From contig MU057865.1 in NCBI GenBank assembly GCA_013265495.1, positions 806,001 through 870,000 of the forward strand: DNA of 64,000 bases, written 5' to 3'. Of the stretch, positions 3,901-61,644 are shown piece after piece. This stretch comes from Vicugna vicugna (taxonomy: Eukaryota). The translations under genes were made by a program, and so were the position numbers. Each line of letters begins with the position of its first letter. The stretch's first letter is position 1. The notes under the pieces were generated by a model, which saw only the letters and a list, made by a program, of their open reading frames with translations, was not told the origin of the DNA and did no database searches.

Positions 3901-4121
3901 TACCCTTGAAGTAAAGAAAACATGAGGTATAAAAGAGGATGGTGCTGGCTGATTTGGGTTTTATGAATGTGCCACACATATGAAGAAACCTGGAGTGCCC
4001 TGCATCTCCCGGCTGCAGCCAGAGTCTGCTCAGCGATCTTACGTCTTTTCAGGTGCACCTGACGTGGAGGATGCAAACGCAGGCGTGGAGTTTCCTTCTC
4101 CTGGGTCATTTTCTAACAGTG

Positions 4122-4235
4122 TCACTTACTGTGAGCGTTTTACTTAATCACTCTCAGCTTGTTTTCACCTTCGTAAAATAAGGAAAAGAAAGCCTGTGTG
4201 ACCGTGGGGGAATTAAGTAAAATAATTTGCATACC
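4122..4235 (+). mobile_element. MIR SINE fragment
   Basis: cacttactgtga...tacttaatcactctcagcttgttttcaccttcgtaaaataagg resembles the MIR core (ttacttaacctctctgagcctcagtttcctcatctgtaaaatggg). Confidence 0.6.
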
Positions 4236-5311
4236 GTATTTACTGTATTATACTATTATTTTATTTTCTTTGTCCGTTCTCCTTTTTTCCCACAAAGACA
4301 AAGAAGGGGAAACCGCTAAGAAATATCGACACCATTAGTGTGAGTGAACAGACTTTTTCTAGACTTGCACCGATCTTGAATCTTCCACCAATTGACTCAG
4401 ACCACGGGCTGCTCGGTGTACTTGTTACGCACCCCATGCACCATGATGCAAAATCGCTGAGGACGTGAACGTCAGTACAATTTCAAGTAACATGTCGAGT
4501 CAGGGGAAATGTGTGTGGTATTTTAATCCAAGTGAAATCAATCTACAATAATTTTTGCTTTAAAAGAACCAAAATCACAAGAAGTGGGGCTTTGTTTGTC
4601 AGAGATGCTAAAGCACATAGGTACAAGCAGAGACTGATAAGAAAAAGATGGCCTGATGTTGGATGTTATAAAATACCCAAGACCCATTTATATGTGAGAA
4701 CTCCGAATTTTGTCTCTGCCCCAAATCCTTGCAGCATGCATCTAATATATTGTTTTGCTTTGTTTCTGTTCAAATCTCCCCTTCCTTTAGGAAAGTGCCA
4801 CACCCCACCCCAGCAGTCACATCACAACCACTGGAACTGCCACGTGAGTATAAATACTGGGCGGCTTCAGCTGACACCTTCCACACTGCCTGTGCGCAGT
4901 TTATAACGTGGATGGCGCCCCATATAATTATGTAGGCGGTGGCCCTGGTACCATAGGAACCTGCCCTTGACCACAATTGATTGATCCAGGATTTACACGA
5001 TTCAAGAACTAAATGCTACCAAAAGAAAAGGCTCATTATCCGCAGCTAGGAAAACCTAGTCATCTGACATAATTCTTCCTTTCCTAAGGTTTGGATATTC
5101 AGCACCTGCTTGGATACTCTGATAAATCCTCATATCTTTCTGGTAGTTTCTCTGTTGCTGCATAAGGTCGCGGGATTCAACTTTCCTTAACTTGAGTAAA
5201 ACAACAAAGAACCTTGACTGATAAAACCATTCTGACCTCACATAACATCCTCACACAAACCAGACATGTGGAGCAGAGGCAACGCCTATTCATTATTCAA
5301 GACCCAGATCA

Positions 5312-6574: not shown

Positions 6575-8981
6575 ATTTGATTGAAGTATAATTTACGGTC
6601 AGTGAAAAGTGCGTATTTAAAGGGAGCGAGTTCATTGATTTTAACAAATGCACTGTGCCTGTGTATCTTATCCCATGACTCTCTCAGGATAGAGAACATT
6701 CTATCATGCCAAAGAGTTTTCCTTCCCTGCAACTTCCCGATTTCTTTTATGGTAGATTCATTTTGTCTATTCAGATATTTCTTGGAAATGAAATCATGCT
6801 GTGTTCTTTTGTGTCTTATTCTTTCACTCAGTATACTTTTTGGAGATTCATCTATGTTGCCTCATATATCAGGAGTTCCTTTTCATCTCTGCATATTATT
6901 CCCTTGTGTAACTAAAACATAATATATTTTTAATCTGTTTTCCCACTGATGGGCATTTAGATTGTTTTTAGCTCTTAGCTATTGTGACTAAAGTTGCGAT
7001 GCACATTTTTTGACACTTTTTTTTTGTGGATATAGCATTTCTTTTGGGTAAATATCTAACCGGGTGATTGTTGGATCATAGAATATATACATATTTAACT
7101 TTATAAGAAATTAAAGTTTTACACTTCAACGAACAATGTTTGAGAGCTGGTTTCCTCAACATCCTTTCTCTGATGTTATCAGTATTTTTAATTTTAGCCC
7201 TTCGGGTGGGTGTACAGTAAGTGTCTCAGTGGGATTTCATTTTATGTTTCCCTGAGAAAAGGTAATGTTGAGTGCTTTATCAGACTGTTATTATAGCTTG
7301 GTGTATTTTTATTCATGAAGTGCCTGTTAAAGTTTTTCACACATTTAAAAAATCAGATTGTCTTTTTATATTAACTCTTCTAAGTTGTTTATTCTGGACA
7401 AGCCTTTAGTCACATATATGTATTACAAATATTTTTTCCCAATATGTGGTTTAGTTTTTCATTTTCTTAACAATGACTCTTAATGAGCAGATTTTTTAAA
7501 TTTTATAAAGAAAAATTTATTTGTTTTTAATTATGGTTATGCTTGTGTCCTGTCTAAGAAATCATCGCCTACCCTATGGTCTCCTATTTTTCTTCTAGAG
7601 CTTTATAGATGTAACTTTAAGTTTAGGGTTATAAGCCATCGAGAATTTAATTTTTGCATGGCATGCGGTAGAGGTTAAAGTTCTGTGTGTGTCTCTCTTT
7701 CCCGTAGAGCTGTGTAGTGGCTCCCAGATATTTTGTCTTCATTGCATTGCTTTCACATTTTGAAACCGGTTGAACAAATACAATAGGTCTATTTCTGAAA
7801 TTACCAGTCTCTTCCGTTAATCTATTTGCATTTCTTTATGCAATACCGCATTGCCTAATGTAGTTTATAATTGATCTGAGTGTCAGTAGCATAATCCTCC
7901 AGATTCGTTCTTTCTCAGGATGACTTTGCCCACAATAGGTCCCTTGCATTTCCACTTAAATTTTAGACACAGTTTATCAGTTTCTACAAAACACCTGCTG
8001 TGATTTTTGAGATTGCATTGAATCCATAGAATAATTTGTGGAGAAGAGACATCTAAATACTGTCATTTCTACTCTGTAAAATGTATCCAGAACCTCTTCA
8101 GTTTCTCTTAGTAAAGTTTTTTGTTTTATTTTTTTAGTTTTCAGTGTGCAAATGCTGCATATATTTTGTTAAAGTTATTCATTTCTATTTTACTCATTTT
8201 TGTTCTGTGATAAATAGCATTCTCTACTTAATTTTTTTAAATACTTTTAAATATTTTTAAAATACTCATAGAATTATGTTGAATTTTATGTATTAATCTT
8301 GTGTCCTACAACTTGGCTAAATTCACTTATTAATTCTAGTACTGTTTTTTATAGATTGCTTAAGTTTCCTACATAAATTATCAATTGTATATGAAGAAAT
8401 CATTTTCACATTCCTTCAAATTTATGTCTTTTATTTTTGCGTGTTTTTAGTTGAATATGCTTAAAAGTCTAGTACCTTGCTAAATAGAAGTGGTGAGATG
8501 TAAACCCCTTTCTCTACTTTTGATTTTACATACGAAGTTAGCTGCAGGTTTTGCCAAGATGCTCTTTATGAGGTTGAAGAAAATTTTATCTTAGTTTTGT
8601 CATAGTTTTCTGATTGTTTATTTAGTTTTTTAGTCATAAAGGGATATTGAATTTTTCCAGTGTTTTCTGCATCTATTGAGACAGCAAGTGATTTTTCTCT
8701 TATTTTTGCTGATGTGGTGTATAACATGGGTATATTTTTGAATGCTAATAAAACCATGCATTTCTAGAATCAACTTCACTTGGTTATTATGTATGAGTCT
8801 CCATAAATATTGCTGGATTTAGTTTGGGAATATATTATTAATAATAATTCTTATTCAGGTTCATGAGGGATATTGGTAATTTTGTTCTCTTGTAATGATC
8901 TTGCCTGGATGTAGCGTCAGGGTTATACTGACCTCATAAAATGAATTTGGAAGTGTTTCCTTTTTCCTCCAGTTTCTGAAG
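6575..8981 (-). mobile_element. Old LINE-1 (L1M-type) 3'UTR and ORF2 remnant
   Basis: T-rich antisense L1 text throughout. The minus-strand ORF 8566..8757 reads SIDAENTGKIQYPFMTKKLNK, homologous to the L1 ORF2 reverse-transcriptase segment [23 protein letters not shown]. Many stops and frameshifts. Confidence 0.9.
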
Positions 8982-10420
8982 TTTGAACAGCTTCTTTTAC
9001 CTTGTCTTCAGGTTTGCTGATCTTTTTCTTCTGCAGCTTCCATTCAATTTTATAATTTTATACATAATTTCAGATATTATAGGTTACAATTCTAAAATTT
9101 CCATTTGGATTTTTATATATGATTTCTATTTCTCTACTGATATATTCTGTTTTCCTTCATCATATTTTTTCTTTCTTTACACTCTTGAACAAAAATTCTA
9201 GCAGCCCTTTTTAAAGCCTTCTATGGTCAGTTCCATCACCCCATGATCTATTTCTCCTGGCTTTAATTTTCTTTTTTCTTCTTTTAGTTATAGGTTTTAT
9301 TCTCTCACTTCTTCATGTGTCTAGTAAGTTTTAATTGTGTGCTAGATATTGTAATTTCTATGTTGTTGAATATCTAAATTTTGATATTTTTCTTTTCATA
9401 GTATCAAGTTTTACTTGGACAAGAAGTTAGTTTACGTACAAAATAGCTTACTTCTTTAAAGGCTTGTTTTTATTATTATTTTTCTTGAAGTATAATTGAT
9501 TTACAATAGTGTGTTAATTTGAGGTGTATAGAATAGTGATTCAGTATGTTTGCAAATTATATTACATTGTTGGTTATTGCAAGATAACGGGTCTAATTCC
9601 CTGTGGTATACAGTAGGTCCTTGTAGAGTAGTTTATATCTGTTAATCCCATACCCCTAATTTGTCCCTCCCCTCTTCCTTCTCCTCATTGGTAACCACAA
9701 GTTTGTTTTCCATATCTGTGAGTCTGTTTGAGAATACCATACTTGCAAAATAAGTCAGATGAAGTCAAATACTATATAATGTCACTTATACCTAGAGTTT
9801 AAAGGCATGATTTGAATTAGAATAGACTGAGTCTGGTTTAGCCTTTACTCTAGGGTCAGATAAGTTCTGCTCCAAAGGTTTGGTCTTTCTGGGATCTCTG
9901 CTGAACACATTAGCTATTCCATAACTTCTCTTTACTCTGCCTGTGAGAGCTCAAAATCTCCCAGTCCTATTTAGCCCTGGAAAGTGTTTTGGCCACAGCT
10001 CCGCAATAACGATTATTTCCATGGTGATGCTTTGTAAGAATTTCATCCTGCACATGCTTTGATTAGCAATAATTTAAAGACTCGGGGGGCCCTCTGTAAG
10101 TTTCTGGAGCTTTTCCTGTCTGAAACCATGCCCTGTTAATTTGAGCCACCTTCACAACCCCAAATTCTGATCTTTATCCCTTGTCTCATGATGTAAGATC
10201 ATTATGCTCGATTTGTGCATCTCACATACTGTGGTCTGGAAAGAGTGTCCAGGCAGAAATCCTGGGCAATTCTGGAGATCTCTTGTTGTTTATCTTCTTT
10301 GGGGGTTGCAGTCACGTATGACTTCTTATCCTTTTTATGTAAACAGTGTGTTTCCTATGTTTTGCTCAATTTTATAATTGAGAAGGCTATTCTGGTATAA
10401 ATTATTCCATTATAACTATA
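8982..10420 (-). mobile_element. Further degenerate L1 sequence (probably 5'/ORF1 region), interrupted by a younger L1 at 9471-9797
   Basis: Continues the T-rich antisense L1-like composition (tttccatttggatttttatatatgatttctatttctctactg). Family assignment is by recall only. Confidence 0.55.
9471..9797 (-). mobile_element. Short 5'-inverted (twin-primed) LINE-1 insertion with TSD
   Basis: 9471-9730 is an antisense artiodactyl-type L1 3' end (ttgaagtataattgatttacaat...ggtaaccacaagtttgttttccatatctgtgagtctgttt). 9731-9797 is the upstream L1 segment in the opposite orientation. Flanked by tttaaaggcttgtttt (9455-9470) and tttaaaggcatgattt (9798-9813). Confidence 0.8.
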
Positions 10421-13090: not shown

Positions 13091-15589
13091 TACAAATAAA
13101 ATATTAAGATGAGAGAATGGGGAGATGTGTGTTCATGAACCCAGGACCCTTCTAGAATTTATATTTTTAAAAAAAGAAAGCATACGACATGCAGGGAAAA
13201 AGCCATTTTCCTTTAAGCCCAGTCCCAGCAAAGAGGATACTGGCAGTCCTCTACAGGTCTGGCCTGTGCCTTCGAACCCCAGGTCTGGAAGAGGTTCTCC
13301 TCTATGTCCCTAAGTGGGGGTGGCCTTTTACACATAATTCTTACAAGCTAATAGCTGCTCTGTCTTAAGACCCTGTAGCCTGGCTCAGAATTTAGGGGCA
13401 GAGGCTATGACCAACATTTCTTCTGCAGTCACCACAATGTTCTGTACAAAATGAGCAGAATAAATACCACTTGCCTGATGAACATGGTTTTCCTTTCATA
13501 ACACACACATTCAAAGCCCAGCTTCCTCAGAGCTGATGAAAAGACCCCTTGGAGCGATGAAGAGCCTTCTCTCACGACCCGTGCCATGAAACGCCCTCGG
13601 GGTATCATCTGTCTCCACGCCAGCGCTTCTGCTGACCATCGTGATCAGGTCTGGGGCCAAACGTAAGGGCCTTTTTAAGAAATAATTCACTATTCAGTAG
13701 CTAAGGAAAGAACATTTCCTTAGACCATAAAGGAACTATAGAATGACTTCTAAATAGAAACCATACAAACAATGATTTTTGAGGACCCATTATTCTTTAG
13801 CCAAATTAAAAAAAAAATTAGATGTAGCTACGCATAATAGGGAGATAGGAATATATTGGATACATTCCAGCCTAAGTGATTTTCAAGAGTTAGAAGAGTT
13901 TTTGGACCTAAGTTTGCTCCCAGTAAAATAGGGTATATGAAAAATTGAGCACCAGAACAAGAAGACTTCTATTTCCTGGCTTCAGCTTCTGTAAGATTTA
14001 TAGATACTTAAAATAAATGTAAAAATCATGTAAATATAGCTGGGTAAGATAAGAGATAATATAAAAAGTTACTTATTTTTCCAAAGGGACTGGCTAAATA
14101 TTCAGTGGTTGATTTACAAGGGAAAATGCCTGCTTTGCTGCAAGTCAGACTTACTCAATTACTGGCTCCTTAAACTATCAAGACAGCTGCCAGATAGGAG
14201 CATTTGGGTGCACAGAAACGGGAACACTCATTTTTTTTGTCAATGCGACCGATCAATAATTTTTTTTTAAAGTTCAACACCTCACGTATACAAAACATTA
14301 TCCTGTCACAAGGAGACTCAAATAGGCATCAGATGTGTCCTCAAATTGCTTATGACCCAGCTGAGCTGAAAATGGGAGGCCCACATACATACATAATACC
14401 GAGATAAGCCGGTGTCATCCTCTCGAAAGTGTGCACCCTCGCTGAGGGTTTACACAAACAGCACTACGGCTTTATGAAAGGGAGTGGGTGCGTCAATGAA
14501 AGCATTTGTCAGGGGTGCCCTCTACAAGGCAGGTGGGTTGTAGGTGGACTATCATGGAGCGTATCAGAGTGGTCCTGGGAACGAGGCATCGAATGCCTAC
14601 CTTGCCTGGAAAGGACGGTCCCTAAATGGGATTACTGGGAGAAGGGCTCAGGAGCAGATCCTCAAAAACCTTGGTATTAGGACTGAGAAATACGAATTTT
14701 AACCTATGAATGATGAGAACGTAAAGGATCTTGAGCAGGAAGTTATTTACCGAAAGGCACTTTCAGATTTCGGGTCTGGGTGAACTATGCAAGGTAATTT
14801 TCAGAGAAGCGATAGCAAGTAGTGAGGATGATAACGAACCCAGATCTGGAGCAACAAAGGTCAGAGTTAAAGACTCCAAAGCGGAGTGCGTGGGTTTGCT
14901 TGGATGCTTGGATGCTTGGATCCTGGAGTTAACCTGAAGCATCGAAATGTCTTTTCCATCCGACTTACAGTACATTTTTTTTTCTCATAACCTCATAAAT
15001 TTGATAATGAAAATCTACATTCTTACAGGGCACAGCATTTTGGGCACACACTTTTTTCTGATCTTTTCGTACTCAAAGACCCACACCGATTCCCCTAGAC
15101 AAAGATCTGCTTAGATCTTCAGCTCTGCCGGCTGAGCTATGGATTGTCTATTCCCGGGGTACTTCTGCAACTGAACCTCACACATCTAAAGATTGGGATT
15201 TAGTTGACAGTGGAATTGAAGAAGTTTCTCTGTGTTCATTCCCCCATCCCTGGTCAGCCGAGGTCATGCTTCCTGGGAGCGAGGCTGCATCTGTCTGGAA
15301 AGACTCCAAGGCTGTTGGGCATTCAGAAAGAAATGGTAAGAACCTTAGCAAAGTTCACACATTGTATTTAATTCTTATTTTTAAAAAGAGAACAGGCTTA
15401 ACAGAAATCCAAATCCTTGCTTAACGTCTCATCTGTTAACCTCGTGCTATAGTTTATAAACCAGCAATGGCAGAGATGAGGAAGTTTGAAACAGAAATCC
15501 TGGAACCAAGGTCAGTCAGGGGCCTGCGACCCACCCAACAGGGGACAATTCGATGAGCTGCTGAGTCTTGCTCTGGTCAAAAAAGGAAG

Positions 15590-15710
15590 CTCTCTTTTTT
15601 TCCTTCCTGCTCTGGCTCTCTTCTCTTTCCCTCCTTCCTCCTTCCCTCTCTTACATCCCTTGTGACCCTCCTTTTCTCTCTTCCCTCTTCGCTTTCTTCT
15701 TTCTGTCTTT
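15590..15710. repeat. Polypyrimidine (CT-rich) low-complexity tract
   Basis: About 120 bp almost entirely C/T on the + strand. Confidence 0.85.
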
Positions 15711-15808
15711 CTGATGAGAAAAATAACTTAATTTTCTTTAGTTTCACTGAACAAAAAGGTTGGGGAGGGAGTGCCTGTTTCCAGTTGTTGTCGGTTTTCC
15801 CATCCTTT

Positions 15809-15811
<3 letters not shown>

Positions 15812-15840
<29 letters not shown>
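15812..15840. repeat. Poly(A)29 homopolymer
   Basis: Directly visible. Confidence 0.95.
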
Positions 15841-15845
<5 letters not shown>

Positions 15846-17048
15846 CCCTTTAGAAGCCCAAAGGTGGAGCTGTTGCAAAAGGAGAGAGCCAGGCAGGCCA
15901 GCTGCGCCGGCGGGGCCTCCGGCACAAGATGCAAACACAGGCATGCGAGGAGCAGCAGATCCTGGAGGCTTTGCTTCCCAAACATAAACATTCCTTTTTT
16001 TTTTTTCTCCCAAAGAGAAATAAAAATCCTGATTACCGCAGATGCATTACTGCCAAATTGTGCAAAATAGAACAAGTATTAAGTGTCTGCTTAACCCCCT
16101 CTAATTGTTAATTCCATACACTTTAGTAGATTTCAGTATTATCAAAATAACTGCAGGGAGAAAGGATTGAAATTCACTTGGGCCATTAAGACCACCGTTT
16201 ATCAGCATAATGTCCTGTGCATAATGATGGGAGGGTCAGTCTATTCTCTCCAGGTCCCCTTTTCTGGGTAGCTCACTGAAATGTTTTCGGGGTGGTTACA
16301 TTTAGGTGGGGGAAAGCCTGGACAAATGCTCGTTTTGGCAGCTGGAAAGCGGCTCCTGCCTGTGCATTCGGCGACCTCTTGCAATAATTTCCCACACGAA
16401 CAGCACTTATTTTTCAGGATCCTAACTTGGTATTTTGCTGTCATCATCCTGAGCAGCAGCAGCAAATTTTGAAAACCCGTTTTATGGAGAGAAAGAGGCC
16501 CAGAGCTCGCTGACTTTTCCTAGCTCCTCTCAGAGATGGAATGAGTTTATTTCTATCCATTTCCATAGACTTTTAGCTCCGAATTTTGTCTCGTAGTTTT
16601 GCTTGTTCTCTTCCCTTGAATCCTTTCCTTCTTCCTTTGTCTCTCTCCCTGAAGCAAAGGCCTTCAGACTGACCTTTCGAGAGCTCTTGAAGCCCACAAT
16701 TTAGCTGATTTCAAAGTGTCCTTATTTATTGTCAATGTATGACTTTCCCCCTCATCATTTTAATGTTTGCTTTCAACCCCCAGTTACTGGAATAAACAGG
16801 GACAAAGTAACCTGAGATGTTTAATGCCACAGAGACAAAAAGGTATTGATCCTTTTTGCTTCTGGAATAAAAAAAAAAGGGGGGTTTGAATAATTTCCAG
16901 ATATATTGTAGATTGCATTGCTATCTTTAATTAAAACATGACATCGGACAAAATCCAATTATCTACTCTTTTAAACCACAGGGCCACCTTTGTCCTAACG
17001 AATTCTGATGTCCCATGTGCAAATTGGCAAGTTTGTTTTCAATACTGC

Positions 17049-17090: not shown

Positions 17091-17539
17091 CATCTGCTTG
17101 TACTACTGGCTTGAATGCAAGCATGCTTGTGAATGTATTCTTGGCTTTGCTTCTGGTGGCATTTAAATGTGGGTTTATGTCAGGTAGTTAAAAACATACA
17201 AAAGGCTGAGCTATACCAACATTGCGTATCATGCGTGCCCCCAGGATGACTGAGGAAGGAATTTCCAAAGTGGTTTTATTGGTGCGGCTTTGGTGCGCCG
17301 TGAAACGGGACTTGGGAAGCAGGGGCTGCAGCAAAGTGGAGGAAAATGAAACGCCTTGAAAGGGAGCTGATTTCAGATACAGAAAGAAAGCAACCTCATC
17401 CCACTACGAGGATACTTGAACCGGCTCAGTCCCTTCCTTGTTTCTTATTCTCTCCCAGCTGTCTCAAAAGGCGCATCTCATCACCTGTCTCTGGGGCTTT
17501 TCCTCTGATCCAGACCTGGCCTGTGTTCCGTTCTTTCCT

Positions 17540-17890
17540 TTCAGACGCTGCTGGTCTCCAAGACGTCTCCTGCGCAGCCCCTGCCATCTGGAGCTGTCTG
17601 CCTTCGACTCCGCCGTGCAGGCTCAGGCTCCTTGAACCTGTCATCGCGAAACAAATTTATTACCTCCTCGTGCCCGGGCCTCTTGGTGCCACGCTCCTGC
17701 TGCTCCGCGACCACGCCGGGCAGAGCCAGGGCGACGCTACCCCCTGCGTTGGTGCTGAGCGGTGCCGTGAGCGCGAGGAGCACGGCCTCGGAGGGAGAGG
17801 TGGGCACGGCGGGCTGCTGCCTGCGGCCGGCTCGGCGGCCGATGCTAAGCGGTACCCCAGGCAGCTCCGACGTTTCGGGGGGGGCGCCTT
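17540..17890. promoter_or_regulatory. Small CpG island (candidate alternative promoter or poised enhancer)
   Basis: About 36 CpGs counted by eye in ~350 bp of GC-rich unique sequence, against a CpG-depleted background. No repeat recognised. Confidence 0.75.
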
Positions 17891-18869
17891 CTCCTCACTT
17901 TGCTGCTACTGGCTATGCTGTGAAATTCAGCTGGTGTGAAATGAATCTACTGTGACTGCTTCTCCCTCTCAGTAGCTGAGAATGTACCCACATGCCTCAG
18001 GTGGCCGTGCCTTTTAGGCCGTGGCCCTTAGTGGCTCCATCCTCTGGAAGAGCGGATCCACTCACAAAGGAGAAGTTGTTTTAGAGACCGGAGAACATGG
18101 ATGTTCTGCAAACCCTTTTCCCGACAAAATGGCAGGCTTGCTGAAGTCTTACAGACAAGACGGATCTAATCCACCGTGAGCAGAGAAATCCATTTGCACA
18201 TCTGCATTTGCAAAACTAGCCTTGAAGTCCGTGCCTTATGACCTAGTTACAGTTAGTCCCATGGTACTGAACGGTTCTCTCTGCATTCCTAGTAATAAAA
18301 TCGCATTTCAGGGACCCACGATAGATACACTGAACAAATAGATACAGATAAGATACAAAAGGACAGACACAGGTTCAAGTGCATCCTGGGATGGCAAGAG
18401 TTATATCTCACAGGCATTGGACAGTGATCGAAACAGTTCGAAAATACTTTACTTTTTAAAAAAGAAATTTAAACTCCACTTGGCTCGGTACCTTCATTTA
18501 CGCCATCACTTCTTTGATTATGGTTGCCCCTTAATTGATAACATTAAATGAATGAGGGGTAAAGTGACTGCCAAATGCGTCCCGCTGCAGTTTTTGACAG
18601 ATGCTCTGATATGAGCTGCTGTAATAATGGACAAGGAAGGGGAGAGCTCCAAGAGGACTTTAGAGTTCAGCTTTGGTTGAAAGGGTATCATTAGTCACAT
18701 GTGAGAAATAGTAACATTTTCCATTAATTCCAAAGAACTTCCCAAATGTATGTGGATGTCCATGGCTAGTATTATGGTGGAAATGCAGCGAGGCCTGAGG
18801 AAGGGAAAGAAACTAAAGCCTTTGAGGGTCTATGAAACGGGGGAGAAATTATACATCTTCCATCTCCTG

Positions 18870-19007: not shown

Positions 19008-19175
19008 GGGGGAGTGTATAGCTCAGGGATAGAGCACGTGCTTAGCATGCACGAGGTCCTGGGTTCAATCCCCAGCACCTTCATGAAAATACATAAGGAA
19101 ATAAATAAATCTAATTACCTCACTCCCAACACAAAAATAAAAAGTAAATAAAATATTGAAAACAAAAACAAAAAA
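19008..19175 (+). mobile_element. tRNA-Ala-derived SINE (camelid vic-1-like)
   Basis: gggggagtgtatagctcagggatagagcacgtgcttagcatgcacgaggtcctgggttcaatccccagcaccttca is a tRNA-Ala(AGC)-like head with A and B boxes. It is followed by aaataaataaatctaattacc and an A-rich tail shared with the copy at 60.6 kb. Confidence 0.9.
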
Positions 19176-28630: not shown

Positions 28631-31600
28631 TCACAACAAGCAAACAGAAGCTGATCGTGTCTATTCAGCTACACTGTCGGCCGTTTCTGGTTCTGAAAGT
28701 CCATGCTATGGAGTCAAGCAGAAAATACCATAGGCATTTGACAAAATTGCTTTTCTCTTCCCTTGCCATTTCCAAATGCCTAGAGGCAAAACAGGTATAT
28801 TTTGACAATGACAGAAGCAAAATATCTCAGCTGGATGGCCAATGTGAGAGGTTTCCCCTAGAGTAGATTTGGATACCGGAGAAGGAGAGAAAGCAGAGAA
28901 CCACTGGATACTGAAATTTGAGAATGACAGAAGAGAAAAAAAAAAAAAGGCATGTTGATAGTAAATGGGAACTGAAATACTGAAAACATACTTCTCAATT
29001 TTACATTCTAATCCAGTGAACACGTGCCTCACCCTCCTCTACTCCTTTCTGCAGGCATTTCTCATTTAGTGATGCTTTTGGGTACCGTCTTGCTGCTTCT
29101 TGGCTGTTGTGGAACCTAGAGATCTGTTTCTCTCTCTTCAGGTAAATGAGTTAAATTTGGCCCCACTGCCATCCGTCTTGAAGTTACCTGTCTCTCACCG
29201 CCTCAAAGCCCTCCTTTGCACGCTGCTCAACAAATGAGCCAATTCACTAAACAGGACATACAAAGCACAGACAGTCTTCTGGGACACGTGCTGACATCCT
29301 AGAAAGAAATGCCAAATCTAAACCTACCATGGCCGATCCCCATCGTGGATACTGACCGGCCTTATTTTTGCTCTGATGCCACACACCATCAATAGATCCC
29401 AGAACTTCTTTTCCCTGCTGAGCTCAGTGACAGTATCAGAATCCATCTCTGTCCACTGTTTTAGACAGCTGCCAATAATTAATCAGAAGAAGCGAGAGAG
29501 ATGAGAATTATTTAACATCCTCGTTCGTCCAAATATCCTATGTTGGGGCAGCCAGGAGACTCTCCATAACCCCTTTCCCACCCAAATCAAGTCACATATT
29601 TGACCTAGAAGGCAGAAGGTGTTGTAAGCTCCTCTCTGCTTCTCTGAGCCTCATGCTAGTCTATCTCAGAGTAGTAGGTTTCAGAAGCACTAAAGGAAAA
29701 CCTTACAATCCATGAGTGGGAGAGTGCCACATCTCGTGTGCAAAAAACTAAGAATCTGTCACTCAGATAAGCATTACGTCTTGTGTTCTGTGATTCTAAC
29801 ACATGTGATCCAAAAGGCTAAGCAGTGGAGAAAGAGGGATGGCTGTGTCCGTCAGTGACTCGAGCCTTAGTACCTCTCATTTTTTTTCTGAACTTTTCAG
29901 AGATTGAGAGTAAAAAGTTCTCTTCCAATTCTGTTTGTTGAAAACTAAAGATGAGTGTTTGGCAAACGAGCATGCAGTGAAAGGCTGGCAGAACAAGGAA
30001 GTTTGGTTGAGACGATCGATAAAGACCCCTTATTTTCACCTTGCATCCAAAACGGTAATCCGTAAATGCACCCTCAGAGGGGGCTGGAAATAGAATTAGG
30101 CCTTCTAACAGGAAGGAGAGATGCTGGTTCTCCTGCCAGGACCGCTTGAGCTACATCTCCAAGGGGACTTTGCTAGTGAGCGCCTTGCTCCTCCAAGATG
30201 CTTTGAATGAAGGCACGAGCAGGTATCCTGCGAGGCAAGGAACAGAAATGTGGGGGAAAAATGCATTTAATAAAAAAGTGAATCAATTCAACTGGAAAAG
30301 AATCTTACAGGGACTCTGCATTCTGTCTTTGACAGTGATTTTCAGGGAGTAGCGGGAAGCAAGCGGATTTGTAAGGCTTTGCACTGAAACCAAGATTTCA
30401 ACGTCGGCTGTGAATAAGCAAGAGAGGGCAGTGTTGTAACATCTAATCCGCGTCTTGGAGGCTTACAGGCTGAGCTGTGAGAGACATTTTTCTGTTCAAA
30501 ATTTATGGATTCTTATTGTTGTTTGTCTCATCCTCCCAAACTATGCCCCCTCACACGCGTTTCTCTTGGAAGTTTTGTCTGACCCCCATCAAATAAGAAA
30601 CCCTAAAGTAACGTCTCACTGGAGCCTTAGCCAAGACTGAACTGTGAACGAATGTAAACCAAGCTCAACCTGGGAAGGGAAGGAAACACACGATGAATTG
30701 CTTGCAACGAAATGGAATCATTTCAATCAAAAGCATCTTTTTTTTTAAATGAATGAACTTGCTTCTTTGCTTGATTCTACTTCAGCAAGAGGATCAAAGA
30801 GATTTACGACCTGTGTCTCTTCAAGCCCGATGCCAGAAATGCACACGTTCTCATTAATAGTCATTTTCTCATCAAAAGAAGCCTTTTATGCAGACAGTGT
30901 GCCTGGTTTTCGTAGCTTGCTTGTTGGCCACGTTTTTTATTAGAAGTTGGATGGCTCATCGTAGGGGATGATGGGCTGTATGTCTGTGTGTGTTTGGAGG
31001 AGGTCGTTTAATTGCTTTTCTGTTTCAAATGTTCCAAACTTCTGTGGTCCGTGTATATTTCAACTTTCAGAATCCTGGGTGTTTTGTTGAGGTGGGAGAT
31101 TCACCAAGAAGTTCAAAAGACAAAGGTAAATCTCTAGTCATTTGGAATGTTTTAAGTCTGATGCTGTGAGGGGATGACATTTCTTTGGGAGTTCTACTTT
31201 TGCACATTTGAGCACAGCCAGCTTCACACTGAGATTCCACAGAGTTACTCTTGTGAAGACTTAAACAATTAACTGCTGAATTTGAGCAACAAAGTTCAAA
31301 AAGCTGAATAATGAAAAAAAAATAAAAGAAAGAAATACAAATCGTTCTCTCCCTTTCAGGAACAGGATGTTTTGTTCCTCTTCAATGAATAGTTTCTGTT
31401 TGTTTGTTTGCTGAGTATGTCAGCCCCAGTCTGTGTCTGAGAATATATTTAGACAGACAAATGATCAGATAGGAATGACTGCAAAGTTCAATTAAGCAGC
31501 CAGTTTGGATTTTTGTCACAAAATTAACTAATTGTGTTAATTGTGTGGGGCATTACATAACCACATGTAGAGTAATGACATATGTTCGGGGGCATTTTTT

Positions 31601-31990
31601 TAGTTTGATTTTGAAACTAAGATGATCCCAAGACATTGTTATCACCTGTAGACCTCAGTCACCGCGGGGCTGGCTCGTGCCTTACACCAGGAGTGAACCA
31701 TGCCCATCAGATTTTTTTTTTAAACCTCATGTCACTGCACAGGACATTCTCCCGAACTGACTGCTTTCTTTCTCAAAACATTTCTTTTTTTTTTTTTTTT
31801 GGCTTTTAGTATACTGCATATGCCTAACTTCCTTTCCACTTCTTTGGACATTTTTGCTCAGCCTCTTTCTGTCCCTGCTTCCCTCCCCCCCCCATCTAAA
31901 TATTAGAATCCTCACAGTGTTAGTTCTGGGCACTTCACATCTGCAACTCCCACCTAGGTGATCTGATATTACCATGCTATCAAATGGCAC

Positions 31991-32637
31991 TGACGGAGTT
32001 CAGGACAAGCTACCCAAAAATATGGCCCCTAAGCATACCGGGTATTTTAAGCTAAAGGAATCTGAGAAATGGCAGGTGAAAGAAGGATTCTCTGGCCTCC
32101 CCCATCTTCCCTGAAACGGCAGCTTGTGAGCCAAGAGATGTGAAATATAATTCAAAACAAAGAGATAATGTCGAAGAAGTTTAAGTGGAGATGCAAAATG
32201 ATCATGCAACTATTTAAAAATATTGCTCTGGATGTGATACAGTGAATAGATTGGAGAAGCTAAGAATGTAAGGGGTCCTCCGTAAACCCCGATCAAAGGA
32301 GCATCCTTTCAGCAAGTGGAGGGAGGCCGAGAAGAATTGGAACAAACAGGACTTGCTCATCTTCCTCCAGGTTACTACCCTTAGCTCATAAGCTTTTTTC
32401 CTATCACGTGTTTGCGCGACCTTTCATTCTTCATCAGACCTGGTATAAAAACCCTCAGGTTTAATCATTTTGCCAGGAGGAGGCTTCATTTCCTTATGAA
32501 GGTCCCTAATATCAGAAAAAAGAAATAAAACCTTAAATAAATAGGTCTGCAATTTTCTCATTAATCTGTCTCTTGTCAGTCAAATTTAGAGAGTCCCAGC
32601 TGGAGACTTTTGGAAAGTAGAAGGAAAAAAAATTCAA
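31991..32637 (+). mobile_element. MER34-like ERV1 LTR inserted into an L2, carrying an internal inverted insert (32124-32267)
   Basis: tgacggagttcaggacaagctacccaaaaatatgg...tattttaagctaaaggaatctgagaaa matches the recalled MER34 5' end. TATA (gtataaaa, ~32444) and aataaa are present. L2 text on both sides joins up (...ccatgctatcaaatggcac | atatgctgatggctccca...). Confidence 0.75.
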
Positions 32638-33570
32638 TATGCTGATGGCTCCCACAGTTCAAGCCAAACCTAGCCTCTTCTCTGAGCTCCTGATTTACAT
32701 GGCAACTGCTTACCTGATGCCACGCTTTGGATGACTCACAGGCATCTCAAAATGAAGAGGACCCGAAAGGCATTCTCAGTCTTCCCTTTGCTTCATTCTT
32801 GATCACAAACCTTATCCCAAAAGGCTGCCACCGTTCAGCCATCTGCTCAGCTTGCTACCTTTCTCTCATCATCCAACTCTATTCACGCGCACGTCCTGGT
32901 GTGTATATGGTTATGTGTGTTTCAGACAAATACATTTCTCCCCGTCTCCCCTGCTCTGACCAGCTCCACGCCGCTGCCATTGCCTCTCGCCCAGACCACT
33001 GCAAGTTTCTTAACTCTTCTCCTATTTATATTCTTAGCCCCCTCAACCCATTCCCTGTACCACCATCGGAGTCATGTTTTTGAATAGTTGCATGATCATT
33101 TTGCATCTCCACTTAGCATCCGTTGACATCATCTCTTTCATTTTGAATCACATTTTACAACAAACAGTGGCTCACAAAGCCCCTGCCTCCCTTTCCAACC
33201 CCGTCTCATGCCTCCGTTCCCCTCATTCACTCAGGGGCGATAGCCTCCCAGACTTCCTTTGAACACACGTGAGACATTCTTTTCCAGTTCAGGGTTTCTG
33301 CACGTCCTGTTCCCCTGCTCTTCTCAGGAGTGGCTCCTTCTCTGTCTTCATGTGTAAATGCAATGCCATCTCTTTCCAGAGACGGCCTCTGACCTCTGGG
33401 TACCACCGGGTTCCTCCCGGTGCTTCTCTCTGTCTCTGTGCCTGCCCTGCTTTTGCAACACAACACAGGAGGGCAGAGCATACATTTGTTGATTCTCTGA
33501 GCTCTCACCCAGTGTCCAGCAGTGCCTGCTGCATTTGAGCCCCTCAGTAAATATGCATTGAAGGAAGAAA
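32638..33570 (+). mobile_element. Degenerate L2 (3' region); duplicated at 35172-36076
   Basis: atatgctgatggctccca...cctcttctctgagctcc...caactgcttacctga...tgccattgcctctcgcccagaccactgca...ctcagtaaatatgcattgaaggaagaa follows L2 order to its tail. Confidence 0.7.
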
Positions 33571-35171
33571 TTAAAAACAATGAAGGGCTGATAAACCCTC
33601 ATAACTAGTGTAATGGCTGCTTTTGAAGGAGGGCTTGAGAGGAGTAGGTAAATTGTCTTGATAAACTAGGAAGGGCTCGTTCATCCATACCGATGGCTTT
33701 CTTTGCAGAAAAAGTAGCTTTTGTGATTTGTAGGTACTTTACCATATGTTCTTTGTTTGTCAAGCCAGTGACAATCTGCTTGTGACGTGGAGAAAGCAAA
33801 GGTCGCTTGAACAGACCCTCTGTCCCCAAGATCATGGCATTTCTTCTCTAACGAGCATGAAAATTTCTGCTTGAAAACATTTGGGTGTCAGTGCATATAT
33901 TATGTTTACTTAATTCTGAAATGAAGATATTGATTCAAAACCACCTGTCTATGTGACAGGAACGATCTTTTAAAACAGAATTTACCTGGCTGGGCACATA
34001 TTTGGGGGATTGGCCATTGCTCCCTCGAGACGGAAGCTAAGTCTGCAGCTTGGGGTAGCTGCTTCTAGTAGGGTGTGTCTTGTTCATGTATGTAGCCAAA
34101 ATATTTTAAAATTTAAATGCCCCATCGCTCTAACTGGATAATGAGAGATTATGAATCAAATAAGACTAAAATATGAAAATAAAAAGCAACAAAGAATAAA
34201 ACTTAGAACTGGTCCAAACAGCGAAGACTTCAGAATGAGTCAGAAAATTTCAAAATTAAACAAGGCAGGAAGCTGTTCATCTTTGTGCTCTGTGCAAAAC
34301 CACTCTGGTCACCAATGTTTCCCATCATTCTCTGGGCTGCACTGCAGGCTTTCGGCAACCTGCGTAACGTGGCCATTCTATTTTGTGCTAATGGGAAAGG
34401 TGAGCTGACAGTAGGAGTGAAGTCCTGAATAAAATTTAACTAGAAAAAGAATGTAAGAGAGTACAGGACGAAAGGAATTATGATGCTGAAGTTGCTAATC
34501 CAGTTGATTAAAAACACTTTCTTTATTTCAGCATTCTACACACACATCAACTAGTTAATACATTGAACAAACTTTTCCATATTTAAAATAACATTTTTCC
34601 ACATCAGAATGATATGGGATACTGAAATAAATCCACAAGGACAACATCTTTCATTTTGAAGAAATTACACCAATCCGTGGATATGAGAATATGTAATTAT
34701 TGAAAATGTTCAAAGCCAAAGAGTTAAAATATGACTAATGGATGAGTTTTTACTGGACTCCAGGCCAAACATTGCTTTCTGGAAGGAGATGGGTAAGGAT
34801 GTACAGTGTCAAAGATGTGGGAGAGGGCAGAAAGCAAGGAATTAGTGTGCGCACTGTTCAGATGGGATATTTCAGATCCACAATCCAAGTGGCAAATGTT
34901 TGCCTTTCTTCCACCTTTAATGCACCACCCAAAGATCTGCATTCTAGGGCCAGCTGTCTCTAACTGGAACCCTCGGAGCTTTCCAGTCCTATTTCCCACC
35001 ACGCCTTCACACCAGTCATGTTCTTCTGCCACCTCCTGAAGGCAGTACCTCTCTGTTCTCACTCGCACTTCTTTCTTGTCTTGAATAGACATCTTTCCTC
35101 TCTTCCAATTGTTTATTCAAAGCAAACCCGTCCTCAGTGGCCCAGAGGATACCCCATATCCTTTTATCAAA
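32666..35171 (+). repeat. 2506-bp tandem duplication, copy 1
   Basis: aaacctagcctc...cttttatcaaa recurs at a constant offset of 2506. The ORF track repeats with the same offset (32727/35233, 34151/36657, 34724/37230). Confidence 0.98.
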
Positions 35172-37677
35172 AAACCTAGCCTCTTCTCTGAGCTCCTGAT
35201 TTACATGGCAACTGCTTACCTGATGCCACGCTTTGGATGACTCACAGGCATCTCAAAATGAAGAGGACCCGAAAGGCATTCTCAGTCTTCCCTTTGCTTC
35301 ATTCTTGATCACAAACCTTATCCCAAAAGGCTGCCACCGTTCAGCCATCTGCTCAGCTTGCTACCTTTCTCTCATCATCCAACTCTATTCACGCGCACGT
35401 CCTGGTGTGTATATGGTTATGTGTGTTTCAGACAAATACATTTCTCCCCATCTCCCCTGCTCTGACCAGCTCCACGCCGCTGCCATTGCCTCTCACCCAG
35501 ACCACTGCAAGTTTCTTAATTCTTCTCCTATTTATATTCTTAGACCCCTCAACCCATTCCCTGTACCACCATCGGAGTCATGTTTTTGAATAGTTGCATG
35601 ATCATTTTGCATCTCCACTTAGCATCCGTTGACATCATCTCTTTCATTTTGAATCACATTTTACAACAAACAGTGGCTCACAAAGCCCCTGCCTCTCTTT
35701 CCAACCCCATCTCATGCCTCCGTTCCCCTCATTCACTCAGGGGCGATAGCCTCCCGGACTTCCTTTGAACACACGTGAGGCATTCTTTTCCAGTTCAGGG
35801 TTTCTGCATGTCCTGTTCCCCTGCTCTTCTCAGGAGTGGCTCCTTCTCTGTCTTCATGTGTAAATGCAATGCCATCTCTTTCCAGAGACGGCCTCTGACC
35901 CCTGGGTACCACCGGGTTCCTCCCGGTGCTTCTCTCTGTCTCTGTGCCTGCCCTGCTTTTGCAACACAACACAGGAGGGCAGAGCATACATTTGTTGATT
36001 CTCTGAGCTCTCACCCAGTGTCCAGCAGTGCCTGCTGCATTTGAGCCCCTCAGTAAATATGCATTGAAGGAAGAAATTAAAAACAATGAAGGGCTGATAA
36101 ACCCTCATAACTAGTGTAATGGCTGCTTTTGAAGGAGGGCTTGAGAAGAGTAGGTAAATTGTCTTGATAAACTAGGAAGGGCTCGTTCATCCATACCGAT
36201 GGCTTTCTTTGCAGAAAAAGTAGCTTTTGTGATTTGAAGGTACTTTACCATATGTTCTTTGTTTGTCAAGCCAGTGACAATCTGCTTGTGACGTGGAGAA
36301 AGCAAAGGTCGCTTGAACAGACCCTCTGTCCCCAAGATCATTTCATTTCTTCTCTAACGAGCATGAAAATTTCTGCTTGAAAACATTTGAGTGTCAGTGC
36401 ATATATTATGTTTACTTAATTCTGAAATGAAGATATTGATTCAAAACCACCTGTCTATGTGACAGGAACGATCTTTTAAAACAGAATTTACCTGGCTGGG
36501 CACATATTTGGGGGATTGGCCATTGCTCCCTCGAGACGGAAGCTAAGTCTGCAGCTTGGGGTAGCTGCTTCTAGTAGGGTGTGTCTTGTTCATGTATGTA
36601 GCCAAAGTATTTTAAAATTTAAATGCCCCATCGCTCTAACTGGATAATGAGAGATTATGAATCAAATAAGACTAAAATATGAAAATAAAAAGCAACAAAG
36701 AATAAAACTTAGAACTGGTCCAAACAGCGAAGACTTCAGAATGAGTCAGAAAATTTCAAAATTAAACAAGGCAGGAAGCTGTTCATCTTTGTGCTCTGTG
36801 CAAAACCACTCTGGTCACCAATGTTTCCCATCATTCTCTGGGCTGCACTGCAGGCTTTCGGCAACCTGCGTAACGTGGCCATTCTATTTTGTGCTAATGG
36901 GAAAGGTGAGCTGACAGTAGGAGTGAAGTCCTGAATAAAATTTAAGTAGAAAAAGAATGTAAGAGAGTACAGGACGAAAGGAATTATGATGCTGAAGTTG
37001 CTAATCCAGTTGATTAAAAACACTTTCTTTATTTCAGCATTCTACACACACATCAACTAGTTAATACATTGAACAAACTTTTCCATATTTAAAATAACAT
37101 TTTTCCACATCAGAATGATATGGGATACTGAAATAAATCCACAAGGACAACATCTTTCATTTTGAAGAAATTACACCAATCCGTGGATATGAGAATATGT
37201 AATTATTGAAAATGTTCAAAGCCAAAGAGTTAAAATATGACTAATGGATGAGTTTTTACTGGACTCCAGGCCAAACATTGCTTTCTGGAAGGAGATGGGT
37301 AAGGATGTACAGTGTCAAAGATGTGGGAGAGGGCAGAAAGCAAGGAATCAGTGTGCGCACTGTTCAGATGGGATATTTCAGATCTACAATCCAAGTGGCA
37401 AATGCTTGCCTTTCTTCCACCTTTAATGCACCACCCAAAGATCTGCATTCTAGGGCCAGCTGTCTCTAACTGGAACCCTCGGAGCTTTCCAGTCCTATTT
37501 CCCACCACGCCTTCACACCAGTCATGTTCTTCTGCCACCTCCTGAAGGCAGTACCTCTCTGTTCTCACTCGCACTTCTTTCTTGTCTTGAATAGACATCT
37601 TTCCTCTCTTCCAATTGTTTATTCAAAGCAAACCCGTCCTCAGTGGCCCAGAGGATACCCCATATCCTTTTATCAAA
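35172..37677 (+). repeat. 2506-bp tandem duplication, copy 2
   Basis: About 99.2% identical to copy 1 (20 substitutions found by eye, no indels). Confidence 0.98.
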
Positions 37678-40600
37678 CCTTTCCTGACCATTTCATTTGG
37701 AGGTTAAGTCCTTCTCCTTTGAATTCCTATAAGATAATTATTTGTACAGTGCAATTGACATTTAATCACACGCTGCCTTTTGACATGTCTTCTATTGCTA
37801 TCTCCAACTCACATTTGCGTTTGAACTATTATTTTCACTTACTTTTCACAAAATTGGATTCTAAGTCTTGATGCCAACGTCCATGGCTGGTATTTGCCTT
37901 GTAATTTTCACAGAACTCAGTGCAGTGTTTTGTGAGCATCCATTTACAGCTGCTATGTTCCTTTTTTTTCTTTCTTTTTCCTCCTTTCTTTTTCCCTTTT
38001 TCTTTTTTGGATCCTCCTGGACCTGCTAAATTTCCTGCACAAAAATCCTACAGGGAGGATTTTGTTTCAAACTCTCCAAACTTCTTTTGGTCCAGACAGA
38101 GACATACTTGAACTTTGAACTTTGGTTTTTCAGTTTAATGTCTACGTCCCTCCAGTTTCCCTCAAAGTCTACCTTATAGATTTTACTCCTGGGCGAAGAC
38201 CAGCCGTGGTGACCCAGGAAGGGGAAGGACTCTGGAAGTGAGAACGGAGTAAGATTCCTTGGAAGGCTGTAGAAAATATCTTCAACTTTCCTTTTTTTCC
38301 TGTTTGTTTGCACTTTTACCTTTCTGGGCATCTTTATTTGCTTGCATCACAAAGCGTGGGATCTGATTGGCAGGAGTGGATTTTAGTGTTGCTGGTATCC
38401 GGCAAGGGGGCTCCCGACACAGTCGTGAGTTGAATTCAGGAGCGCACAGACTTTTCAGACAGGTGTGTATCTTTGTCTCACTTAATTGGTGAGAACTTGG
38501 GGTGTTACCTAGGATGTCAGAGTGAAAACTGCAGGACTGGGCTTTTGTTTTAGAAGAATATAAAATTTGTTATGTGTTGAACACAACAATAAACCCCTCC
38601 CTCTAAATAGGGATGAAGAAAGCTCTTTTTATCTCATTCCTGGTGCCCCCACGTCTTTCCATCGCAGCTCCAGGGAAGATACCGTTTCAACCATCCTGCA
38701 GTTTTAGGAAGAACAAAAGGTGGCAGCCAGTGAGGCTTTATGATACGTAAGAAGAATCACATGAGATGAGTTGGGGCTATAGTCATTTTGAAGCCAGGTC
38801 CCTGGCCATACTTTCTCTTCTTTGGTGTTCAAGCCCTGTGCACTGTCAGGCTCTTTGGTTAGGATCTGTGTGAGCAGTCAGATTTGACAGGTGCTGATCA
38901 TCTGGGTTACGGAGAGGGAGCCCGGGAGAGGGTGTGCTGTAATGACAGGAAGTCACGGAGCAGCAATACGCAGTGCGAGGCAGCTCAAAACCCTCTCCCT
39001 GAGAGCTGAGAAGACTGTGCATCAAGCCAAACAGTGTCGGCCTGAGTGGAGCGGTCACCGGCTACTTCAGTGACACCGTCGCTAGGATCTGAAACTCCAA
39101 ACGCACTTTTAGTGTGAAAGTGAGATAGTGTGAAAGGAAAAAAAAAAATAAATGGAAGAAAGAAAGAGAAGGGAAGAAAGGAAAGAAAAGTCCGGAAAAC
39201 AGTCAGTCCCTGGTGCTTTTCCCGGGCCTTGGAGGCACAGACATGACATCACCAGCAGCCAATCAGAGCTCTCCAGCTTTGTCCAGGTTCCGAAGCCATG
39301 GCATCATCGCCGATGTGGCCCAGAAATGAAAATAGAACTCTGTCTAAATATACAACAATGAGAGTCAAGCACTGCTTTAAAGGATGTGAGAACCAAGAAA
39401 AACTCCTTCAATCAGTATCCTCCTTTCATGAAGGGTCCGTAAATCTAGATTTTGGCTCCTGGAGCCACTAACCTTGGTATTGCATTTAATCTTTAGAAAC
39501 CGGCAGCCAGAACTGATGAATGCACCACCGAGACCACCACCCAGTCATTCCAGCTCGCTCCTGGATGTGGGACAGAGGCAGCAGCGGGGTCACGGCCACG
39601 GGGGCAGGGGGACAGTCTGCCTGGTCAGGGGCCGGCACGGGGATGCAGGGCCCCTCGCGAAGGTGGGTAAGTGGCTGTCATTGTCAGTAGGTTCCATTTA
39701 GCTAAAAGCACAGTTTACAGTTGTTGAAGGTTGATTGATCTGTTGATAAACACTAATGTTTTCCAGTTGACAATTTCTCCGTGTTAATTTCTTTAATGCT
39801 GGCAGACCTGCCTAGCAAGGGCTTATAAATAGCACCGGTGTCATCGTCCTTTTTAAGTTATTAATGAGCCATCGTGCTTCAAGGGGCTGGGGTTTGGGGA
39901 CAGGTTGTGCTCGACTGCAGTTTCTGACATTGATACGTTAGCACTTGGAACTTGCTTGAGATGAGAACATGTTTCTTAAAAAAAAATCACAGCACTGGCC
40001 AAATGCATCCATAATAAAAGAGACTTGTTTATAATGAGTGACTAATTAAACTTTGGAGAGAGGAATAAACTGCCAAGGCCCTTCACGCAGCATGTCCTTG
40101 ATGCGAGGGCATCAGCACTGTCCCCACCTCGACCGCAGCTGCCCTCTGCTGTCTTTGCGCCTTCCCTCTGCACGTACCCTGTTATCACTGAGATGAATGA
40201 ACTCCTGCCTCTGGGAATCAGCTCCGGCCCAGACGGTTCTGTCTGCCAACTGGTGGCAGGGGACAAGAGCAGACTTCTCCAATTAGCAGAGTCCCCCATC
40301 AGGCAGCCGGACGGACGCAGTGTTTATGTTTGCGGACAGCCTCTCTGGCTGAGGTCTCCTGCGCCGAGAAGTAGAATTCTAAAGGCGAGACAGACAAATG
40401 GACGAGGTGGCGTGATATCCTGGGAAGGCCTTCTCTTGATTCACCTCTTCTTACTCCTTCGGGGCGATGCAGATGAGCACCCGAGGCTTTGCGCAGTAGC
40501 ATGGGGGAGATGATTTGCATCATGGTGGCAGGAGCAGGGGATGGGGGGTTGCTTTCTAACTGACGTCAATACAAACGGACACGTGGCCAAGCTGGGTTTG

Positions 40601-52480: not shown

Positions 52481-53030
52481 TGTGGGAAGAAAAATGTGGG
52501 GTGAGAGGATGTCCATGTCCCAGGTCTTGGTTGAGTCCCTGGGACGTGTCCCACCAAGTGTGTCTTTGGCTTCACTGAGGAAAGAATTCAAGAGTGAGCC
52601 ACAGTTGAGTAAAGATATAGATTTATTCGGAGAAGTGCGCACTCTATAGACAGAGTGCAGTCTGTCTCACTCAGCAAGGAGAGCAGCCATGAGGTGTGGG
52701 GGTGAGTCTTCATGGGCTCAGTAACCTTGTAAGCTAACAAGTGGGAGGGTTATTCCAACTACTTTTGGGGATTCCCAGGAATTGGGCCACCACCCACTTT
52801 TTGGCTTTTTATGATCAGCCTCAGAACGGTCATGGCGCTTGTGGGAGTGCCATCTGCCATGCCAATACATTACAATGAGCATATAATGAAACTCAAGGTC
52901 TGCTAGAAGTCAAATCTCCTGCCGTCTTGGGCCTCAAGGCCTGTTGAGAGTTGAATGTTCGGCCACCTTGGTGTTAATTGCTGTGTCTCTCCTTTAACGG
53001 TTGTGTCCTGCCCCCTTCTGCCCTGTCTCA
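52481..53030 (-). mobile_element. Solo ERV1-type LTR, 550 bp
   Basis: TG...CA termini with a perfect 4-bp TSD ataa (52477-52480 / 53031-53034). Antisense poly(A) signal tttatt at ~52622. Homologous to the LTR at 61058-61644. Confidence 0.9.
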
Positions 53031-56359: not shown

Positions 56360-56493
56360 ACTTTTGCTTAATTTTAAACATATTTAATTGACTATTTGTT
56401 ACTTTGTGTAATTGATTTTAAATATATTTAATTTGCTATTTGTTACTTTGCTTAATTAATTTTAAACATATTTAACTATTTGCTACTTTGCTT
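56360..56493. repeat. AT-rich minisatellite, three copies of a ~40-44-bp unit
   Basis: Unit approximately actttgcttaatt(gatt)ttaaacatatttaattg(a)ctatttgtt, repeated three times. Confidence 0.85.
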
Positions 56494-57399
56494 TCTTATA
56501 AATATGCTTAATTATAAATGTATGTTAAAAAAAAGAAACTATTTTAGTAGTACTAAATTGACCTAAGTAGATGTTACTGTTCAGCTCTGAACAGCTACCT
56601 GAAGTGAAGCGAAGGCATGTTTATTAGCAGAATTTCATGTATTAGAAGAAAAGAAAAAAAAATAAAAGTTTTAAGTGTAGAACAATCACCACTAGCTTAG
56701 CAAAGTTTATATGCAAAAATAAATTACATGCATGCATTCAATTTTTGCAATATAAAAGCATAAACTCTTTAATACTGGCTTGCCTGAAATTTATACATTT
56801 TCTTTTCATGGATTTATTGCTGTTGCTTGGCTGGTTTTGGCCCCTAAAAATTTACACTATTTCTCTTTTCATTACTCCCTTTAATTTATTCCTCAGTTGC
56901 ATTATCTTCACTTCCCTAAAACTCTGAAAATGCTCAGAAATCATTATCATTTTCTATTCTCAGAATTTTAAGTATTAGATTTTTTAAAGTCCTTTAGGTG
57001 CAACTGAATTATTTGATCTCGTACTCTCTTGATCCCATGACAAGGGTGTGATTCTGAAGTTTCTGTTCACTCATCTGTGGATTTATGGAGCGCCTCCTGC
57101 CATGTCACAACGGTTCCCCAGATGCAGGAGATGGCAAGTGCTCACTTCAGGCCGTGGCCCTGAGATGTAGGGAATGGACAGTAGAGTTGGGGAGTCCCAG
57201 TAGCTGACACTCAAGACACGAGTGTCAACTCATGGCTTTCGAAGCTAAGCTGCTAAGCTGCTCTGTCCCTTCCTATTTACAAAAATCGATTGACCCTGTC
57301 TCCACCTCAGTCTCCCATGATAATAAATATTTCTGCTTCCACTACGACTGTCATTAATAACAATGGTTACTAGTGATAATATTAAAAAATAAAAATAGC

Positions 57400-60618: not shown

Positions 60619-60770
60619 AATGTTTTTCTTTTTTTTTTTTGGGGGGGGGTGATTAGGTTTATTTTATTTATGAATTTATTATTTATTTTAATGGAGGTAC
60701 TGGGGATTGACCCCAGGACCTTGTGCATGATAAGCACACATTCTACCACTGAGCTATACTGTCCCCCCTA
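60619..60770 (-). mobile_element. tRNA-Ala-derived SINE (camelid vic-1-like) with TSD
   Basis: Reverse complement reads ggggggacagtatagctcagtggtagaatgtgtgcttatcatgcacaaggtcctggggtcaatccccagtacctcca, then an A-rich region, aaacctaatcacccccc and poly(A). TSD ctaagtcttt at 60609-60618 / 60771-60780. Confidence 0.92.
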
Positions 60771-61057: not shown

Positions 61058-61644
61058 TGTTGGGGGAGAATAGGTTCTTGCCTCACGCAGGAAAGAATTC
61101 AAGAGCAAGGCATGGTAAAGTGAAAGCAAGTTTGTTTAGAGGGCTCCACACACCACGGACAGAGTGGGGTCTGTCTCATTAAGAACAGAAAACGGCTTAG
61201 GAGACACACACTCCATAGGCAGAATGCGGGCCATCTCAGAAAGGTGAGAGGGAGAGAAGCCGAGAGGTGTGGGGTGTGTAAAGTAAAAGTAGATACACAC
61301 TTGCAGACAGAGTGCGGGCCATCTCAGAAGGTGCAGCAGAGGGACCACAAGGTGTGGGGTTGTTAGGTTTTATGGACTCGGCAATTTCGCATGCCACTGA
61401 GTAGGAGGATTATGCCAACTACTTCGGGGAAGGGGTGAGGATTTCCAGGAAATGCCCCCCACGCACTTTTTGACCTTTTATGGGCAGCCCAGGAACTGTC
61501 ATGGCGCCTGTGGGTGCACCATGAGGCTCAAGGTCAACTGGAAGTCAAACCTCCCGCCATCTTGGTTCTAACCAGTTTGTCCTGTCCTCAATGGCTGTGT
61601 CACTCCTTCAGTGGCTGTGCCTTGCCCTCTCCCCTCCCACTTCA
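61058..61644 (-). mobile_element. Solo ERV1-type LTR, 587 bp, same family as 52481-53030
   Basis: TG...CA termini with a perfect 4-bp TSD ccta (61054-61057 / 61645-61648). Shares ggaaagaattcaagag, ccaactactt, gtcatggcgc and gaagtcaaa with the 52.5-kb LTR. Confidence 0.9.

Follow-up and report, generated by a model that had tools for sequence, protein, structure and literature searches.

A 2.5-kb non-coding piece is written twice in a row in the vicuña sequence analysed here, and the locus raises the question of whether the chromosome itself carries two copies, and by what event they arose, or whether two alleles of one stretch were placed side by side during assembly. Throughout, the window refers to the whole stretch of DNA that was analysed, 64,000 nt in length.

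Structure and content of the repeated unit

Copy 1 of the 2506-bp unit occupied positions 32666..35171 and copy 2 positions 35172..37677, both on the forward strand and adjacent in head-to-tail orientation, the arrangement of a tandem duplication. Only an offset of 2506 produced a long self-match among the five offsets tried (2504-2508), and self-BLAST of the copies returned 99.202% identity across 2506 bp with 0 gaps. Both approaches reproduced exactly the offset, the lack of indels and the 20 substitutions given in the initial annotation, and the four example differences and the junction string (35166-35180) quoted there were all correct.

As far as tested in Pfam and Rfam, the unit is non-coding. 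The window contained 44 stop-to-stop frames of at least 100 aa, 14 of which were scanned in Pfam, including four that overlap the duplication. Thirteen of these 14 had no family and one gave a weak match to DUF5562 below the cut-off, with no Pfam family in any of the four overlapping frames and 0 Rfam matches over positions 31000-40000. No gene could be named in the window from frames, Pfam or homologue searches.

The initial annotation had suggested that the duplication may double a regulatory element containing an AP-1 site. An AP-1-type motif was indeed present at 34236..34242 (forward strand), with its counterpart at 36742, and a second pair at 32732/35238 had been overlooked earlier. The window contained nine TGASTCA motifs (four within the two copies), fewer than the 12.8 expected, and a count of nine was reached in 90 of 100 shuffles. 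The unit displayed a GC content of 0.43 and a CpG o/e of 0.35, close to the window values of 0.41 and 0.33, and no CpG island was found within it. With motifs at chance level and a CpG o/e near that of the window, the suggested doubling of a regulatory element was not supported. We regard it as very unlikely that a real duplication was kept since it doubles an AP-1-bound enhancer and alters the expression of a neighbouring gene; two motifs per unit would fit such a role, whereas neither motif enrichment, nor a CpG island, nor a gene on which the enhancer might act was found. The duplication is most likely neutral, which is the default inference.

An L2-like remnant extends over 32636..33570 (forward strand; boundaries approximate), which we take to be L2 from the resemblance to an L2 3' end, and it is cut by the left breakpoint. 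A remainder of ~1.6 kb had been described as apparently unique; it is not entirely so, its final ~130-240 bp presumably being L2-derived as well. Immediately to the left of the unit lies what we take to be an old solo-LTR-like element (31990..32635, strand not given), for which a target-site duplication was looked for and found to be absent. An inverted repeat spans the left end of the unit, with a left arm at 32124..32271 (reverse strand) outside the unit and a right arm at 33026..33178 (forward strand) within copy 1, the duplicate of which starts at 35532. The arms share ~78% identity across a spacer of 754 nt, and the left breakpoint falls within this spacer. This was the sole inverted pair of at least 40 bp with a spacer below 3 kb in the window, and a left breakpoint would fall inside such a pair in ~3% of cases by chance, a value computed post hoc. 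The arms have a perfect run of ~33 bp in common, the left arm lies inside the LTR-like element, and the axis of the pair (32648) is 17 bp off the left breakpoint. The arms appear closer to each other than two independent L2 remnants presumably would, and the pair may therefore be an old local inverted templated insertion.

Breakpoints and junction

The outer breakpoints have a 7-bp microhomology, CAAACCT, in common. The left breakpoint reads C-AAA-CCT-AG-CCT (32665..32676, forward strand) and its right partner C-AAA-CCT-TT-CCT (37674..37685, forward strand), with 7 exact bases and 10 of 12 bases matching. A clean join at this microhomology predicts a unit of 2503 bp; the actual junction, C-AAA-AAA-CCT (35168..35177, forward strand), has three A more. 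These surplus bases allow two notations, either a blunt join without homology or a join guided by CAAACCT with a three-base slip or insertion. The join therefore carries microhomology, microhomeology or a small insertion, though the blunt reading is formally possible. As for an assembly join, the blunt notation can be used with equal validity here, and this counts against a real duplication.

In chance tests designed once the match was already known, a 7-bp near-register match occurred in 0.4% of 100,000 trials with random breakpoint pairs from the window, in 1.2% and 3.8% of pairs under looser windows, and a match of 10 in 12 bases in 0.4-0.8% of 40,000 trials. No long homology was present at the breakpoints. 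Aligned locally, the 300-bp surroundings of the two scored 20 compared to a shuffle mean of 21.8, and self-BLAST of the window revealed no in-register long repeat at both breakpoints. Duplication by NAHR was therefore not supported, and NAHR between L2 remnants was rejected. A second similarity (15/20), ~50 bp inside the right breakpoint, also scored at shuffle level and was discarded.

By its head-to-tail arrangement, the nature of its join and the lack of the long homology that NAHR needs, the duplication looks like the non-recurrent, microhomology-associated kind. Among 159 human join-points, microhomology was reported at 22%, microhomeology at 32%, insertions at 24% and blunt joins at 5.7% (PMC6902434 Table 2). 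As far as the accessible text of that paper describes the human PLP1 series, the vicuña locus resembles it in the head-to-tail arrangement, the short identity or near-identity at both breakpoints, the few extra bases and the lack of flanking low-copy repeats; unlike that series, the vicuña unit is far smaller, non-coding and without phenotype, has copies 0.8% diverged and is known here from the assembly alone. Polymerase-theta-dependent tandem duplications are described, in the available part of PMC7368036, as having micro-homology and occasional insertions. The brc-1/brd-1 duplications of C. elegans reported there share these features and range from 1 kb to 1 Mb, which includes the size of this unit; unlike this unit, they came from repair mutants, and most measured 10-20 kb. 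One junction does not reveal which enzyme made the vicuña duplication.

On balance, we consider it probable that the locus is a real, old, non-recurrent head-to-tail duplication of 2.5 kb, formed via template switching or polymerase-theta joining, and infer that the animal's DNA contains its junction. In this scenario a broken end or nascent strand would have copied the unit up to ...TATCAAA and would then have primed again at the matching CAAACCT, 2.5 kb upstream, by either a template switch of the FoSTeS/MMBIR type or polymerase-theta end joining, with three A slipped or added there. Stalling of the fork might conceivably have been aided by the old inverted repeat in whose spacer the left breakpoint lies; an enrichment of long inverted repeats near human deletion breakpoints has been reported (PMC4319165, accessible text). 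The copies would then have diverged by drift over roughly 1.6-4.4 Myr.

Divergence of the copies and alternative origins

The 20 substitutions comprised 15 transitions and 5 transversions. A recount confirmed five CpG-type differences, copy 2 having lost four CpGs and copy 1 one. The CpG decay had been put forward as an argument against an artefact; it does exclude read errors and does not exclude a false duplication of two alleles, because alleles decay likewise. With the GG/TT doublet at 33836-33837, copy 2 forms a short direct repeat with the neighbouring bases; the doublet is probably one templated event, which brings the total to 19 events. Polarisable mutations were distributed as 6 versus 1 events between the copies, an asymmetry that was not significant among these polarisable events (p = 0.125). 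The first half of the unit contained more differences (p ~0.06), in step with its higher CpG count (25 versus 15). The first 278 and the last 272 bases were identical between the copies (p ~0.01 for two such ends with 19 random events, post hoc). Every significance value in this analysis was computed post hoc, with the features already seen. These difference-free ends of ~275 bp each are unexplained by an old duplication with later drift and count against it; a heterozygous bubble with homozygous borders might give them.

A camelid mutation rate of 7e-9 per generation with 5 years per generation is given in the accessible part of PMC7331169, and the same rate is repeated in that of PMC11102080. 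At this rate, 19-20 differences correspond to 2.7-2.9 Myr (95% range 1.6-4.4). Divergence after duplication would therefore make the event older than typical allelic ages. In favour of a real duplication, the 0.8% observed exceeds the mean heterozygosity published for the four South American camelids (heterozygous SNP rates of 0.18-0.30%, PMC7331169, accessible text) by a factor of 2.7-4.4; against it, the probability that two alleles reach 19 differences was 2-9% under an exponential coalescence time, or 16% at a cross-ancestry distance of 0.4%. The copies are thus either long-separated paralogues or alleles that had diverged. The divergence is incompatible with a recent duplication of a single allele, and the event is young only if two already diverged alleles were joined. 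Of the earlier description as lineage-specific or polymorphic, the first part fits, a real lineage-restricted duplication being likeliest, and a recent or polymorphic origin does not follow from 0.8%.

Two diverged alleles could have been joined by the assembler. In a false (heterotype) duplication of this type, a single heterozygous stretch would be represented by both of its alleles in tandem, with no gap left between them by the assembler or a gap-filler. The initial annotation had rightly kept this alternative. Both the divergence and the difference-free ends are compatible with it. The Lama-Vicugna split is placed at ~2.5 Myr and the alpaca is reported to carry ~36% guanaco/llama ancestry (PMC7331169, accessible text), and the 0.8% observed matches what this split predicts for a Lama and a Vicugna allele (0.7%, 17.5 sites per 2506 bp); the published heterozygosities, however, imply a cross-ancestry distance of only ~0.4%. 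According to the available text of PMC9516828, such errors tend to arise where homozygous sequence meets heterozygous sequence, and wrong gap-filling can join copies without a gap. The false duplications described there resemble this locus in their adjacent near-identical copies, allele-like substitutions and difference-free borders, and are unlike it in that no assembly gap is present here and the breakpoints have microhomology in common. The window contained 0 N and no gap separates the copies, which weighs against an assembly error, though gap-free cases exist. The identical unit ends and a junction readable as blunt favour a false duplication. Near-register microhomology, however, has no cause at arbitrary contig ends (0.4-4% by chance), and identical tracts of 402 and 338 bp inside the unit exceed the identical ends, so that a simple bubble would have closed within the unit. 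Taken together, a false duplication appears unlikely.

The junction and the divergence would be reconciled if the duplication were real but young, and if a switch from one homologous chromosome to the other, in an animal of mixed ancestry or high heterozygosity, had brought together copies that were diverged alleles from the start. The junction looks biological and the divergence matches the Lama-Vicugna distance. The cross-ancestry distance implied by the heterozygosities, however, is half of that observed, and an inter-homologue event is required. Inter-homologue events are less common than sister-chromatid ones. It is thus quite improbable that the copies were already alleles when they were joined, and we would be surprised if a Lama-type and a Vicugna-type allele stood side by side on one chromosome after a microhomology-guided homologue switch in a hybrid camelid. 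Were this so, the locus would be a datable admixture marker and would offer a clean example, from nature, of template switching between homologues.

Sequencing runs were searched with 390 sampled words from 32400-37950, which listed 24 runs. A word share of 0.73-0.78 was found in 18 runs from 8 studies and three organisms (14, 3 and 1 rows); outside these, two rows with small shares (0.09 and 0.07) and one with 0.00 were not used as evidence. A single-copy chromosome would give a maximum share of 0.84, which further divergence of 0.2% or 0.4%, an ordinary allelic distance, would lower to 0.78 or 0.73. No listed run exceeded the single-copy share, which fits both a false duplication and a switch between homologues and counts against the real, old duplication. 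None of the 18 demonstrably carried both copies; the runs are, however, contigs that drop variants, so carriers would look alike and word shares can separate neither them from single-copy runs nor one reading from another. All that the search establishes is that this sequence occurs in three related organisms. No RNA run containing it was found among the matches listed, and the unit's final 25 bases, looked for in metagenomes, gave 0 matches, host DNA not being expected there.

The real, old duplication is the reading preferred here. A preprint on 24 South American camelids (bioRxiv 10.1101/2025.08.28.672513) counts 4,247 CNVs, of which 1,265 are duplications. No published account could be tied to this locus by matching without genome coordinates, which is no proof of absence. 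Kilobase-scale non-coding duplications are common and this one has little significance on present evidence. If real, it offers a simple structural marker that can be typed by PCR and whose junction can be read; a false duplication would instead call for caution with this assembly. Only a true fusion of two diverged alleles would be of interest to those who study admixture or the mechanisms of rearrangement.

Other features of the window

A CpG-island-like patch was observed at 17501-18000 (GC 0.63, CpG o/e 0.75), with frames of 117-211 aa on both strands, and is possibly a promoter or first exon; its CpG-rich frame at 17541-17894 had no homologue among longer proteins or in the Atlas. A purine-rich tract with an A29 run and a GC-rich stretch at 15560-16050 gave the impression of the 5' region of a leftward transcript, and at 4001-4500 the local CpG o/e reached 0.88 at 44% GC. 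Two tRNA-derived SINEs in opposite orientations (19008-19148 and 60624-60767) were 76.6% alike, and we take them to be the camelid tRNA-derived SINE. Two LTR-like fragments in direct orientation (52648-52853 and 61305-61522) were related, being 69% alike, and an AT-rich minisatellite with a 44-bp period and approximately three copies was present at 56368-56499. Finally, the stretch at 6600-9800 was AT-rich and T-skewed, and is presumably an old reverse-strand L1.
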